A stretch of DNA of 64,000 nucleotides. Source: an uncultured Rhodobacter sp. GTDB lineage: Bacteria > Pseudomonadota > Alphaproteobacteria > Rhodobacterales > Rhodobacteraceae. The stretch is from the NCBI GenBank assembly GCA_945952585.1, contig CAMFII010000008.1, positions 53,234 through 117,233 on the forward strand, in the 5' to 3' direction. The position numbers and the translations under genes are program-made. Numbering within the stretch: position 1 is the first letter of the stretch; the number at the start of each line of letters is the position of its first letter. This document shows, in pieces, positions 59,904-63,353 of the stretch. The notes under the pieces were generated by a model. It worked only from the letters and a program-made list of their open reading frames with translations. It searched no databases and was not told the origin of the DNA.

Positions 59904-60212
59904 TCAACGCACGTCTTCCCCGATGCGGACCGTCAGGAACCCGTTGTTGGGAAAGGTCTCGATTGCCCCATCTGCATATGTGATGCGGAACTCGCCTTCA
60001 TAAAGCCCGGCATCCGTCGTATCGGCTGCGGCCCAGCCATATTCCACGACCGCTCCTTCAAGGATGTCACAGGGCGCATCGATGATCGTCGCTCCGCCAC
60101 GCAGCCGCATCTGGAACTGCGCGGTGGCACCGACCAGACTGACCGCAGGCTCAAGCACATAGCGCAGGGCGGGCGAGGTATCGCCGCGCTTGATGTAGAA
60201 GGTCTCGCTCAT
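59904..60212 (-). CDS. BppU-like (phage baseplate upper protein N-domain) small protein
   Basis: MSETFYIKRGDTSPAL...YGWAAADT...YEGEFRITY.DG.IETFPN.GF resembles this phage family from recall; no HMM was run. Confidence 0.65.
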   Translation of the reverse strand: MSETFYIKRGDTSPALRYVLEPAVSLVGATAQFQMRLRGGATIIDAPCDILEGAVVEYGWAAADTTDAGLYEGEFRITYADGAIETFPNNGFLTVRIGEDVR

Positions 60213-60226
60213 TCGCTTTTCTCCTC

Positions 60227-62428
60227 TCAGACGATCCCGCTCGCGCCGCTGCCGTCCAGATGCCAAAGCTGGAACAGCCCGGTCTCGTTGCCGGCATAGG
60301 GCGCCGTCGGCGGCGTGAAATCCGCGATGTAGCGCTCCGTAAGCCAGACCGCGTGTTCATCGCTGGTCCCGGGCCACTGATAGGTCGCGGGGCTCGATCC
60401 GAAGGCGTTGACGCCATAAACCGAGCTGCCCGCTGCCCGGACCGGGATTGCCGCCCCCTCGCTCGCGACAAGCGCACCGTCCAGGTAAAGCCGGCGCTGC
60501 GCTGGTGTGCAGACCAGCGCCACATGGTGCTCAAACCCGTCAGCCACTAAAGGGTTGGTGCCAGCGACCGAGTTGGTGCTGTCGCCTACATAGCTGTCGG
60601 CAGAACTGGCGTTGCGGAAGTTGCCCACGATCCGTCCAGCACTGTTCACGCCGATCCAGCCCTTGTTGGACATGCCGGCCAGGACGCGCGCGGCAGCCGG
60701 TGGCGCAGACAGGGTGAATCGCGCCTCGATCGTCCAGGTCGCAACGGACGGAAGGGCGGCCCCCGCCGTCGAGGTCAGGCCATATCCCGCCGTCGCGCGC
60801 TGGCCAAAGCCGGTGATTGACGTTCCATAGGCCGCCGACGTCATGGTCAGGGCCTGCGCCGCTGTGCTGGCCACGATCGGCGCTGCGGTCACCGCCCGGA
60901 CAGTTCCATTCAGAGGACGTCCGATGCCAAATCCGTCCGCGCTGTTGTCATAGATCATGTCGGCGCCACCATCCGCCACAGGGTCGCTGCCGCGCACGAA
61001 CCAGACGTCCAGCGCCACCCCATCGGCTTGCGCAGCGGCAAGCTTCAACGTGATCGTGTTGCCGCTGATCGTGATCGGCGTTGTCGCGTCCAGGGGAAGG
61101 GCCGTGCCGGTATCGCCCCGCGCATAGACCTTGAACCGCGTTGCCGGTGACCCGATCGAACTCAGCCCGGTCGCCCCCGAGGGAAGGGCCACCGTCAGTG
61201 CGATGTCCGTCTGGCTCGCCCGCAGGGCCGAAGTGATAACGGGCAGCGCATTGCCCCGCATCGCCCGGCTGAAGGCCCGCGCCAGCGCAACGCCGCCAGT
61301 CTGCGTTTCGTGGACTCCATCGACCAGCGCCACGTCAACCGGCTGAACGTAGGTTCCACCATTTGCGGCCGCCCAATCCGCCTGCGTCTGCCGGATGCTG
61401 GCAATCCGGTCGCCCGTACCCCAGCTGGTCGACGAAATGTTCGGCAGGGCGCAAAGAAGCTTTCCGAAGCTCGCGCCCATGACCCCATTGTGGGCGGTGA
61501 TGCTGGCAAACAGGCTGTTGAGCGCCTGCCGGTAGACCAACGGAGCCGTACCGGCGCTTGAATCGCTGTGCCCCTGGAACCAGATGAACTGCTCGAACCC
61601 GCCGACCGAGTCGAGCACCGCCAGAAGTGGCGTGTTTTCCGTTCCGCCGGGCACGAACGCGCTGATGGCCTGCGCGCCCCGGGCATGCCCGACCAGGGCA
61701 CACGTCACGCCATGCGCCGAAATCTGATCCTTGAGCAGCACGGCCGCCCCGGCACTGTCATATTTGCCGCTGTCTGTGGGGAACGCCCAGGCCGGCGTCA
61801 GGTCAGTTTTCTGGCTGTCCTGATAGGTACCATAGATCACCCCGTTCGCATCCGGCGTGATCGCCAGGTCGGTCAGCGTGGTGGTCTGGCTGTCCATCTT
61901 GGCAAAGAGGCGAACCGCCAACGACTGCCCTGCCAACGCGATGACCCGACCGACACCCAAGGGATGCGCATAGCTGTGAATCGCCGTCGCCCCATTCGTT
62001 CGGAACTGGATGGTCAACCAGCCCCTTCTGGCAGGGACATCCGGGCAGACAATCGCGGCGGTCCCCGCCCCGAGCCCGGTCGCTGCGACAGTCCAGTCCT
62101 TCAGCACCGTCCCGTCTTCGGCCTTCAGCACCCGATAGTCGAGCGTTGCGGCCGCACCGCTCAACGTAACCTGGAAGGTAAGTGTTCCTACGCCCTTCCC
62201 CCCTTCGCCACCGCTCACCGTCCGACGCTGTGCGACTGAATAGGCCGCAGGGCCGGAGACTGCCGTGATGACGTTCACCGCAGTGTCCGCCACCGTAAGT
62301 TCACCGGCGGCCATGACCCCCGCAATCGCCTTGTAGGTTCCCGGCACGGTCGGCTTCACAGCCACACCTTCTGCCGCGTCCAACTCGATGATCGTCGTGG
62401 CCGCAGGGATGAAATATTGCTTCACCAT
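60227..62428 (-). CDS. SGNH/SASA-type carbohydrate esterase with a C-terminal LamG/ConA lectin-like domain; no signal peptide
   Basis: VGRVIALAGQS, FIWFQGHSD, DGVH; C-terminal WTIEARF, HHVALV, RLYLDG, FTPP, LWHLDG; GAGGGAG RBS. Confidence 0.7.
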   Translation of the reverse strand: MVKQYFIPAATTIIELDAAEGVAVKPTVPGTYKAIAGVMAAGELTVADTAVNVITAVSGPAAYSVAQRRTVSGGEGGKGVGTLTFQVTLSGAAATLDYRVLKAEDGTVLKDWTVAATGLGAGTAAIVCPDVPARRGWLTIQFRTNGATAIHSYAHPLGVGRVIALAGQSLAVRLFAKMDSQTTTLTDLAITPDANGVIYGTYQDSQKTDLTPAWAFPTDSGKYDSAGAAVLLKDQISAHGVTCALVGHARGAQAISAFVPGGTENTPLLAVLDSVGGFEQFIWFQGHSDSSAGTAPLVYRQALNSLFASITAHNGVMGASFGKLLCALPNISSTSWGTGDRIASIRQTQADWAAANGGTYVQPVDVALVDGVHETQTGGVALARAFSRAMRGNALPVITSALRASQTDIALTVALPSGATGLSSIGSPATRFKVYARGDTGTALPLDATTPITISGNTITLKLAAAQADGVALDVWFVRGSDPVADGGADMIYDNSADGFGIGRPLNGTVRAVTAAPIVASTAAQALTMTSAAYGTSITGFGQRATAGYGLTSTAGAALPSVATWTIEARFTLSAPPAAARVLAGMSNKGWIGVNSAGRIVGNFRNASSADSYVGDSTNSVAGTNPLVADGFEHHVALVCTPAQRRLYLDGALVASEGAAIPVRAAGSSVYGVNAFGSSPATYQWPGTSDEHAVWLTERYIADFTPPTAPYAGNETGLFQLWHLDGSGASGIV

Positions 62429-62452
62429 CGGGTCGCTCCCTCGTCCTGTCTT

Positions 62453-62758
62453 TCAGTGCCGAAACATCAGATGGCCGCCATTGCGGCTGTCCGAAGGAAG
62501 CGCCCCGCGACGCCCCGAGGGCATCACGTCGCCCGCAACGCCCCTGCTGCCCCCAGTCAATGGCAGCATGCCACCTGCAACAGCTGCAGCCTTAACGGCA
62601 GCCGTCGCTGTTCCGCCAAGATCCAGCACGCCCGCGCCCGAGGCGCTGGCGCCCCCGCCCGTCCAGGTCGCGCCCGATGCAGAAATCGCGTTTGCAACTG
62701 GCGCGTCGCCGGTCCAACTCGCGCCGTCGGCGGCGATCGTGTTCAGCATCTCTGTCAT
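62453..62758 (-). CDS. Small Ala/Gly-rich hypothetical protein with two WTG repeats
   Basis: TIAADGASWTG / AISASGATWTG repeats; fills the gap between co-oriented cassette genes. Confidence 0.5.
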   Translation of the reverse strand: MTEMLNTIAADGASWTGDAPVANAISASGATWTGGGASASGAGVLDLGGTATAAVKAAAVAGGMLPLTGGSRGVAGDVMPSGRRGALPSDSRNGGHLMFRH

Positions 62759-62764
62759 CTGCAA

Positions 62765-63166
62765 TCAGGCCCCGCCCGCCGTAAGGCTGAAGGCCGTGAC
62801 CGTCACCGCTTGCCCCAAGGCCAGAACCGGATTGTCCAGGGTCATGGCCCCACCACCGCCAGTCGCGGTGACATCACCCTGGATGTGGCAGACCGATCCC
62901 TGATGAATCCGGAAATGCCCGGCTGTGCCCGCCGCATCCGCGGACAGATCCTGCCAGACGCCAAGCAATTGCTTGCTTCCCGTTGCCGCCGCCGCCAGCC
63001 AGTCGGAAGGCAGAGCGACCGTTGCAAGGACAGTTCCGCTGTCTGCCTGACCGCAATCCGCGGGAGCGGGACCGTCACGCAATGTCAGCACCGGGGACGC
63101 CCCCACCGCGACCTCCATCGCGTCAAGTGCCGCGTTTCTCAACACCGTCGAAAACTGAAAGGCCAT
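62765..63166 (-). CDS. Phage-type hypothetical structural protein (MAxQFS...RNAxLD family)
   Basis: MAFQFSTVLRNAALD...GTVLATVALPSDW...SADAAGTAGHFRI...QGDV...LDN..L..GQ.VTVT.F.LT.G, a pattern recalled from tailed-phage late genes. Confidence 0.65.
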   Translation of the reverse strand: MAFQFSTVLRNAALDAMEVAVGASPVLTLRDGPAPADCGQADSGTVLATVALPSDWLAAAATGSKQLLGVWQDLSADAAGTAGHFRIHQGSVCHIQGDVTATGGGGAMTLDNPVLALGQAVTVTAFSLTAGGA

Positions 63167-63353
63167 CTGCCACCCCGTGAAATCCGTCGGGCGCATGCCA
63201 TTCGCGCCCTATGGACCTCATGGGTAAGCGGTAAGGCCTAACGCCCTCCTGGGGCTGCGGACGCTGACAGAACGGCGACGCAACGCCACCCGGATGCCAG
63301 GATGCGCTGCCTCCATCGCATCCTGGGCCGGCGGATCGGTGCTTGGTCAGGGA

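Follow-up and report, generated by a model that had tools for sequence, protein, structure and literature searches.

We analysed a stretch of 64,000 nucleotides (the window, whose positions serve as locus coordinates) from an uncultured Rhodobacter sp., on contig CAMFII010000008.1 of assembly GCA_945952585.1; the host genome is called G000 below. Near one end of the window, four co-oriented genes, p1 to p4, make up an isolated cassette. Judged by its relatives, its gene order and its pattern of substitution, this cassette is very probably a phage-derived receptor-binding module that selection has kept as a free-standing unit. That it is, beyond this, a domesticated peripheral receptor-binding module for the gene transfer agent (GTA) of the same genome is a reading to which we give a probability of about 0.5. 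The original prediction, made from the letters of the DNA, had already proposed a domesticated receptor-binding module, and the cassette does match the module that ends the tail operons of Rhodobacteraceae prophages, is intact, is syntenic in three species and is under purifying selection.

Conservation of the free-standing cassette

Three species, G000, G313 and G310 (the last being Alitabrizicola rongguiensis / Tabrizicola sp. J26), carry all four genes at identical lengths and in one shared slot, where the order is Metallophos, Pkinase/Usp, cassette, ATPase. Synonymous divergence (dS) and the ratio of nonsynonymous to synonymous divergence (dN/dS, ω) were calculated by the Nei-Gojobori method, with five flanking housekeeping genes for comparison. 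Between G000 and G313, dS was 0.27–0.37 in the cassette and 0.29–0.48 in the flanks; between G000 and G310 the corresponding ranges were 0.74–1.00 and 0.87–0.98. Since cassette and flanks have the same dS in each pair, these values indicate that the cassette co-diverged with the chromosome. ω was 0.04–0.11 for p4, 0.07–0.08 for the whole of p3 and 0.10–0.15 for p1, compared with 0.03–0.11 for the five flanking genes. By this measure p1, p3 and p4 are under purifying selection as strong as that on their housekeeping neighbours, and the cassette is not decaying. The least constrained of the four genes is p2 (ω 0.37–0.49). No domain of p3 exceeds ω 0.12 (0.05–0.12 per domain, the distal LamG included), and therefore an arms-race signature is absent from p3 in these comparisons. 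An empty-site comparison for the insertion borders failed, the kinase-ATPase synteny being already broken in more distant members of the genus.

Recurrence outside prophages in relatives with dN/dS below 1, to which the original prediction had pointed, is thus seen in G313 and G310 (ω 0.04–0.15 for p1, p3 and p4), and further slots are found in G308, G309, G314 and G306. The four-gene unit is isolated from phage genes in G310, G313 and G308 alike. G308 has a complete p1-p2-fibre-p4 cassette, flanked by a gluconokinase-like gene and an SDR gene; the fibre shares the first ~50 residues with p3, while the body differs (canonical SASA plus fn3). G314, G309 and G306 carry an isolated version without p4 beside a sugar-ABC/mannitol locus. 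Some free-standing copies stand beside mobile-element debris: in the sugar-ABC-slot cassettes of G309 and G314 (L007/L025 12521-13820 and L006 13948-19372) the fibre gene is followed by integrase/recombinase fragments, the types seen being DUF6538 with Phage_integrase, and Resolvase/Recombinase, ParB and Terminase_6C pieces.

The free-standing copies also have upstream sequence in common. Among 8-mers, CGTTGCGC alone is present upstream of p1 in all four independent chromosomal slots. Its orientation is always that of the coding strand and its position 96–143 nt before the ATG, against a genome background of ~0.045 per kb per strand, and it heads a partly alignable leader of ~100 nt in free-standing cassettes of at least four slots. 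In 7/7 phage or prophage contexts examined, the 260 nt ahead of p1 do not contain it. Because the leader is common to free-standing cassettes and absent in phage contexts, the alignments argue for a shared origin of the free-standing form as a separate transcription unit, not for repeated independent prophage decay.

Relation to the tail operons of phages and prophages

Relatives of p1 at 71–73% identity lie in prophages on long metagenomic contigs (L051–L053). There p1 is preceded, in order, by genes for the tape-measure protein (TMP), for products of ~219 aa and ~220 aa, for a DUF6950 protein and for a Phage-tail_3 protein of ~770 aa, to which p1 is immediately next. Behind p1 come variable genes of the size of receptor-binding protein (RBP) genes and then, near the prophage end, a conserved 118-aa closing gene, which is a p4 homologue (hhalign probability 97.3%, E 2e-11; tblastn E 6e-8). 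In G103 the p1...p4 bracket also follows a comparable tail-tip block, and in phage Pan4 and Caulobacter phage Seuss a p1 homologue comes first in a short run of genes at the close of the structural and lysis region. We considered the downstream genes of Pan4 and Seuss as counterparts of p2–p4 and set them aside, pairwise BLAST and hhalign being too weak. Because a bracket opened by p1 and closed by p4 ends prophage tail operons, the cassette is, on homology and gene order, a receptor-binding module taken out of its place at the end of a siphophage-type tail operon.

Phage-structural homologues, as the original prediction foresaw, are found for p1 and, at family level, for p4. p1 matches PHROG 3758 'virion structural protein' (E 2e-25). 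Its family has 5,378 matches in a clustered collection, or 1,617 clusters/representatives at 50% identity; the top 120 are at least 69% identical and nearly all exactly 133 aa long, and identity of ~70% extends across thousands of phage and prophage copies. The AlphaFold2 model of p1 (105-sequence alignment) has a predicted local distance difference test (pLDDT) score of 95.6. Foldseek returned a single strong match in the PDB, 9rkv_A of 'Agrobacterium phage 7-7-1 tail fibers' (template modelling (TM) score 0.79, probability 1.0), with A511 gp105 (TM 0.42–0.51) and phi812 arm proteins as weaker matches. The p1 profile matches 44nx_B (E 2e-11) and 9rkv_A (E 2e-6), and sequence identity to the garland protein of 7-7-1 is 23%. 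Entry 9RKV contains long and short tail fibres and small homodimeric garland proteins (gp014), which clasp distal parts of the fibres and whose genes adjoin the long fibre gene (PMC12796354). From the ~140-aa size and the four-chain entity we infer that chain A is gp014. In Agrobacterium phage Milano the garland proteins share the fold of T4 gp8 and A511 gp105, 'tail-fibre-network connectors' that form dimers threaded like beads on an extended peptide, and a candidate 'string' gene lies between the garland genes (PMC10811340).

p1 resembles the garland proteins of 7-7-1 (gp014) and Milano (gp125/gp127) in profile, fold, small size and adjacency to a fibre or tailspike gene, and the position of Milano's candidate string gene is similar to that of p2 in the cassette. 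Whereas those garlands decorate myophage baseplates, p1 belongs to a siphophage-type module that is free-standing in a bacterial chromosome. Homologues of p1 precede fibre-like genes in Pan4, Seuss, G036 (a Peptidase_S74 fibre), G103 and the three prophages, and fusions of the p1 domain with GDSL esterases, with a polysaccharide deacetylase or with a beta-helix and LamG protein occur among its relatives. By fold and context p1 is a predicted fibre-network connector rather than a capsid adaptor; its native phage context points to the tail tip, not the head. The Pan4 homologue (L002, ON968455.1, 9001-9402) is 68% identical to p1 although the recorded host of this phage, Pseudanabaena, is a cyanobacterium, which suggests recent exchange with alphaproteobacterial phages or casts doubt on the recorded host; Pan4 also has genes annotated 'GTA-like'.

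p4 alone has no Pfam match at E≤0.1. In its family, 14 of 37 members match PF10651 BppU_N (best E 5e-8) and 16/37 match Rib, and the G103 homologue scores 20.5 bits against BppU_N, for which the cut-off is 23.1. The AlphaFold2 model of p4 (pLDDT 91) is an immunoglobulin (Ig)-like sandwich. Its best TM-scores, 0.63–0.70, are with siphophage baseplate proteins, namely the 294-aa chains of TP901-1 in 4v96 (0.66–0.70) and proteins of 80alpha, Douge and NF5; generic Ig domains reach similar E-values against the model. The BppU likeness proposed in the original prediction therefore holds at the level of family and predicted fold only. Compared with BppU of TP901-1, whose BppU_N domain the p4 family matches and on whose baseplate chains the model superposes, p4 is the Ig-like domain only (102 aa), without the helical and C-terminal parts, and its gene follows the fibre gene whereas the BppU gene precedes it. 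In Bacillus phage vB_BhaS-171 a domain homologous to p4 forms the N-terminal part of a 'GDSL-like lipase' protein, the gene for which comes directly after those for TMP and Dit. p4 is a candidate baseplate or fibre anchor.

The fibre itself would be p3, in which an N-terminal anchor (~aa 1–50) is followed by a beta domain (51–160), a SASA/SGNH esterase (~161–400), a middle domain and a LamG lectin (~541–733). Laminin_G_3 (PF13385) matches residues 554–695 at 31.4 bits against a cut-off of 27.6 (E 2.5e-7), whereas SASA (PF03629), at 23.5 bits (E 4.7e-5), stays just below its cut-off of 24.8 and is passed by homologues; of the esterase-lectin call made beforehand, the lectin half stands directly and the esterase half through those homologues. 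The predicted catalytic residues are Ser169, Asp370 and His373. G167-Q168-S169, W283/Q285/G286/D289 and D370-x-x-H373 are invariant in the 12 homologues aligned, and because the SGNH/SASA signature is invariant across them the esterase is likely to be active. Fibres of the SGNH-esterase/lectin type are well known in phages: the polysaccharide-deacetylating fibres of Pectobacterium phage Possum and the RBPs of temperate Klebsiella phages combine the same esterase, carbohydrate-binding domain and exchangeable N-terminal anchor. Unlike those genes, p3 lies outside a phage genome and is under uniform purifying selection, with no arms-race signature.

Only 13 p3 homologues are present in a collection of 5.8 billion proteins; among them N-termini are swapped and fibre bodies shuffled. 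p3 begins MVKQYFIPAATTIIELD..., without (I/L)-G repeats. The homologues P0129 and P0132 do begin with such repeats (MRVGIGIGL... and ...LGISGLGLMG...), like the five-fold 'star' plug of the head fibre of the Rhodobacter capsulatus GTA (RcGTA), and RcapNL gp30 (L050:20845-21279), beside the GhsA homologue gp29, begins MGLGLGIGLGL. Another homologue, P0130, lies on a Mu-like phage contig (L032:7159-12109) between major capsid/cement genes and head-tail connector genes, a head-module position that is unusual for an esterase-lectin fibre. A 130-aa open reading frame (ORF) upstream of the fibre in L032 was considered as a p1 homologue and found unsupported (hhalign probability 1.7%), and the neighbourhoods of P0129 and P0130 yielded no GhsA-like gene. 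It seems that one SASA-LamG fibre body serves on the heads of some elements and on the tails of others.

p2 gave no family, PDB or phage match; in the phage databases the first 60 aa of p3 likewise had 0 matches. Repeats of the G-x-L-x-L-x-G type, as in p2, occur inside Pan4_26 and in a middle gene of prophage L051, and in P0126 p2-like repeats are fused N-terminally to a p3 homologue. p2 may be the extended 'string' or linker for p1 dimers.

The gene transfer agent as candidate partner

Among marine and freshwater Alphaproteobacteria, GTAs are regarded as major drivers of gene exchange. The G000 genome, which is 99.96% complete, has on contig C6 an RcGTA-type cluster that is intact: TerL comes first, portal, protease, capsid, tail and TMP genes follow, and a 1,301-aa GTA_TIM protein is the last. 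Its only PF05065 (HK97) capsid and its only PF03237 large terminase lie in this cluster; PF03354 (TerL_ATPase), PF04466 (Terminase_3) and sheath families have no match in the genome. G310 and G308 (both 99% complete) likewise have the GTA-type terminase only, and G313 has one extra. The original prediction had placed the particle elsewhere in the genome, as a GTA, tailocin or prophage: the GTA cluster is the sole particle detected, and neither a tailocin sheath nor another terminase was found. As far as these families reach, the GTA is the only candidate particle in G000.

Because the GTA is the only head-tail particle encoded in G000, a p1–p4 complex would most likely be made with GTA particles, and it would be released with them at lysis; release of p1–p4 would need lysis, as for GTAs, since the four proteins have no export signal. 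In the arrangement that we infer for the subunit roles, attachment site, GTA partnership and co-regulation, p3 would form the fibre, its SGNH/SASA esterase deacetylating a surface polysaccharide (capsule, exopolysaccharide (EPS) or lipopolysaccharide) and its LamG domain binding polysaccharide. Dimers of p1 would sit like 'beads' on an extended peptide, probably p2 or the N-terminus of p3, and by clasping it would tie fibres together; p4 would anchor the complex at the edge of a tail tip of the siphovirus type. The complex could then serve as an extra adsorption or host-range device, a functional analogue, not a homologue, of ghsAB and rcc00171. We regard the chances that the cassette decorates the GTA tail as about even.

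In RcGTA the adsorption genes are off-cluster, phage-derived, patchy, fast-moving and syntenic only among close relatives (PMC5026251), and the (I/L)-G repeat plug of the head fibre Rcc01080 binds a pentameric base (PMC7296036). Like the cassette, ghsA/ghsB (rcc01079/rcc01080) and rcc00171 are phage-derived receptor-binding genes away from the GTA cluster, patchy in distribution and syntenic among close relatives; in both cases homologues stand at the end of prophage late operons and the targets, for the cassette predicted ones, are polysaccharides (PMC5026251, PMC7296036). The differences are as plain. Rcc01079 is an 84-aa jelly-roll base and p1 a 133-aa garland-fold protein without homology to it; p3 has neither the (I/L)-G plug of Rcc01080 nor the DUF2793 of Rcc00171; the cassette, unlike ghsAB, has four genes including an esterase; and its association with the GTA and its control by CtrA/GafA are putative. 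The head-spike locus of the ghsA/ghsB kind suggested originally is not what we find: p1 and its profile do not match the Rcc01079 chains in the PDB, nor do these chains appear among its fold matches (RcapNL gp29, run as positive control, matches 6tb9 at E 3e-30), and G000 has no GhsA homologue, a single weak tblastn match falling inside an unrelated 641-aa ORF on the other strand. No paper in the literature searched links a garland, BppU-N-like and esterase-lectin module to a GTA.

A single DUF2793 (PF10983, Rcc00171-type) fibre gene is present in G000, on contig C4, and p1–p4 do not match that family. This gene (C4:145446-150480) lies directly upstream of an rmlC/B/D/A-like dTDP-rhamnose operon, echoing the linkage of rcc00171 to EPS genes in R. 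capsulatus, and the AT-rich region upstream of it has TTAAG/TTAAGC strings.

Several observations weigh against a partnership with the GTA. Of 301 genera sampled in the family, 4 have p1, and ~7/16 members of the genus carry the module; with so patchy a distribution the GTA does not need the cassette, which would be an optional accessory only. G000 already has a canonical Rcc00171-type fibre gene. The absence of other capsids, terminases and sheaths was read from a handful of Pfam families. Host GTA proteins have no BLAST-level similarity (tblastn) to the tail-tip proteins of the module-bearing prophages, for which reason docking compatibility with the GTA is only putative. Neither the host GTA cluster nor the DUF2793 fibre gene has the leader motif upstream of it, and a CtrA-like half-site in the leader has one mismatch and is confined to one slot. 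Homology between the tails of module-bearing phages and the host GTA tail was itself considered and dropped, since there were no tblastn matches and only gene order and the Phage-tail_3 domain are alike.

Alternatively, the cassette is what remains of a prophage and was kept for a role outside any particle; its products could, for instance, form a soluble esterase-lectin complex that is released on lysis and remodels the capsule or EPS of the population, with biofilm dispersal, masking of phage receptors or superinfection exclusion as the outcome. Its origin is clearly a prophage tail module, its esterase triad is conserved, its distribution is patchy, the GTA link is putative, and purifying selection shows that there is a function, not which. 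We nevertheless think this unlikely, since the structural proteins p1 and p4 are as constrained as the enzyme (ω 0.04–0.15), which enzymatic activity alone would hardly explain, and the complete p1...p4 bracket is retained in several independent slots. Moreover, the proteins lack signal peptides and an export system and would depend for their release on lysis, which in G000 is GTA-linked.

We hold it somewhat less probable again that the cassette is a chromosomal store of receptor-binding genes, recombining with or supplying visiting phages, and hence a selfish or mutualistic portable cassette. p1 and p4 would provide long homology arms around variable RBP genes, the classic layout of a recombination cassette; the shuffling of fibre bodies and N-termini is visible, and free-standing copies with a common leader occupy at least four slots. 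Yet the equal dS of cassette and flanks in three species gives no sign of recent exchange, no such prophage is now present in G000, G310 or G308, and selection on an unexpressed store would not hold ω near 0.1.

Decoration of the head, with the fibre on the GTA capsid vertices in analogy to ghsAB, is quite improbable. The head-module position of the p3 homologue in L032, the (I/L)-G repeats with which two homologues begin, as in the plug of Rcc01080 and in RcapNL gp30, and the lack of a GhsA homologue in G000 would all suit it, but p3 itself has no such plug, p1 is not GhsA-like, relatives of p1 and p4 map to tail fibres and baseplates, and the native prophage position follows tail-tip genes. 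Finally, a neutrally decaying, unexpressed prophage fragment, one form of the prophage remnant that the original prediction named as the alternative, is effectively refuted by the selection analysis: although the cassette is isolated from other phage genes and its family is patchy, none of the four ORFs is broken or differs in length among three species, with dS reaching ~1.0, ω (0.04–0.15; p2 0.37–0.49) is for p1, p3 and p4 as low as in housekeeping neighbours, and the catalytic residues are invariant.

To return to the GTA-linked reading, we entertain, as a doubtful extension of it, that cassette and leader make up a portable 'tropism cartridge' for GTAs, a receptor-binding unit complete in itself and under separate regulation, which split once from prophage tail operons with its own leader and has moved between slots and species while swapping fibre bodies between p1 and p4. 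Were this so, Rhodobacteraceae populations could retarget which neighbours receive GTA DNA. The known determinants of GTA target range come from one model organism and two loci, ghsAB and rcc00171; if the GTA link is true, the cassette would add a third, unrelated type of off-cluster adsorption module, with a putative enzyme activity. Should the link fail, bacteria would still keep orphan phage fibre modules under selection, which calls for another explanation. In either case the cassette shows cleanly, in a natural setting, how such a phage module has passed from an arms race to housekeeping-like constraint, and it is a small four-gene genetic system for the study of garland/TFN-connector proteins. 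The leader motif and the p1/p4 bracket together form a signature by which such modules could be sought in other genomes.

Layout of the locus and its leader

The four minus-strand ORFs, in the order p1-p2-p3-p4, span positions 59904-63166 (Table 1; ORF listing, with the start codons of the original prediction). Its account of four tightly packed, intact genes with ribosome-binding sites and no signal peptides agrees with ours: the gaps p1/p2, p2/p3 and p3/p4 measure 6, 24 and 14 nt, a purine-rich string resembling a ribosome-binding site precedes every start, and no signal-peptide-like N-terminus is seen in p1–p4 by inspection. The neighbours, too, are as described there, a Pkinase+Usp gene upstream, which extends past the window end, and an E1-E2 P-type ATPase downstream, with its own sigma-70-like promoter.

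Table 1. Features of the cassette and its leader, in window positions
Feature	Position	Strand	Basis
Conserved leader/promoter region of the free-standing cassette	63167..63300	-	motif comparison
p1, 133 aa, garland / tail-fibre-network-connector-like, module opener	62765..63166	-	PHROG, profile, fold
p2, 101 aa, Ala/Gly-rich with G-x-L-x-L-x-G-type repeats	62453..62758	-	sequence inspection, no family match
p3, 733 aa, SASA/SGNH esterase + LamG lectin fibre (predicted)	60227..62428	-	Pfam, homologue alignment
p4, 102 aa, BppU-N-like Ig-fold domain, module closer	59904..60212	-	family Pfam matches, fold
CGTTGCGT	63278-63285	-	within leader of window cassette
TTACCCA box, CtrA-half-site-like	63221-63227	-	conserved in three syntenic species only
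Inverted repeat GGGCGC-N9-GCGCCC, perfect	~63189-63209	-	23-43 nt upstream of p1 start

By Pfam, the ~13 kb downstream hold purine catabolism, GAPDH and DUF533 genes, and the ~15 kb upstream, including contig DNA beyond the window, phosphoesterase, MFS, Kup, TerC and TetR genes; all genes in these flanks are metabolic, transport or regulatory, and none is a phage gene. The claim that no phage genes surround the cassette stands for this range, where the capsid, terminase, tail, lysis and integrase neighbours expected of a prophage are all missing, and for capsid and terminase genome-wide outside the GTA cluster on C6; tail, lysis and integrase families were scanned in the flanks only, no gene-by-gene scan of the whole window being made for them. 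GC content is unremarkable. G000 has no paralogue of the cassette, and p1–p4 gave 0 matches in PADLOC and NCBIfam.

In the three syntenic species the p2 stop (TGA) shares its reading frame with the p3 ATG, at a distance of exactly 27 nt (window 62426-62455, minus strand; likewise L022 and L023). Read-through of the stop would yield a p2-p3 fusion, comparable to the natural fusion P0126; in G308 p2 and the gene at the p3 position are out of frame, so that the in-frame spacing elsewhere may be a coincidence.

The leader has no sigma-70-like promoter and no Rfam match. Its motif was considered as a regulon marker or GTA promoter element and rejected: the extended motif has 10 matches genome-wide, mostly intragenic and none at GTA loci. 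The CtrA-half-site-like TTACCCAT is conserved only in the three syntenic species, which makes it weak evidence, and for the same reason we do not regard the TTACCCA box as travelling with the cassette. The inverted repeat ahead of p1 is kept in G310 in the reduced form GGCGC-N9-GCGCC and could be an operator or a hairpin in the 5' untranslated region.

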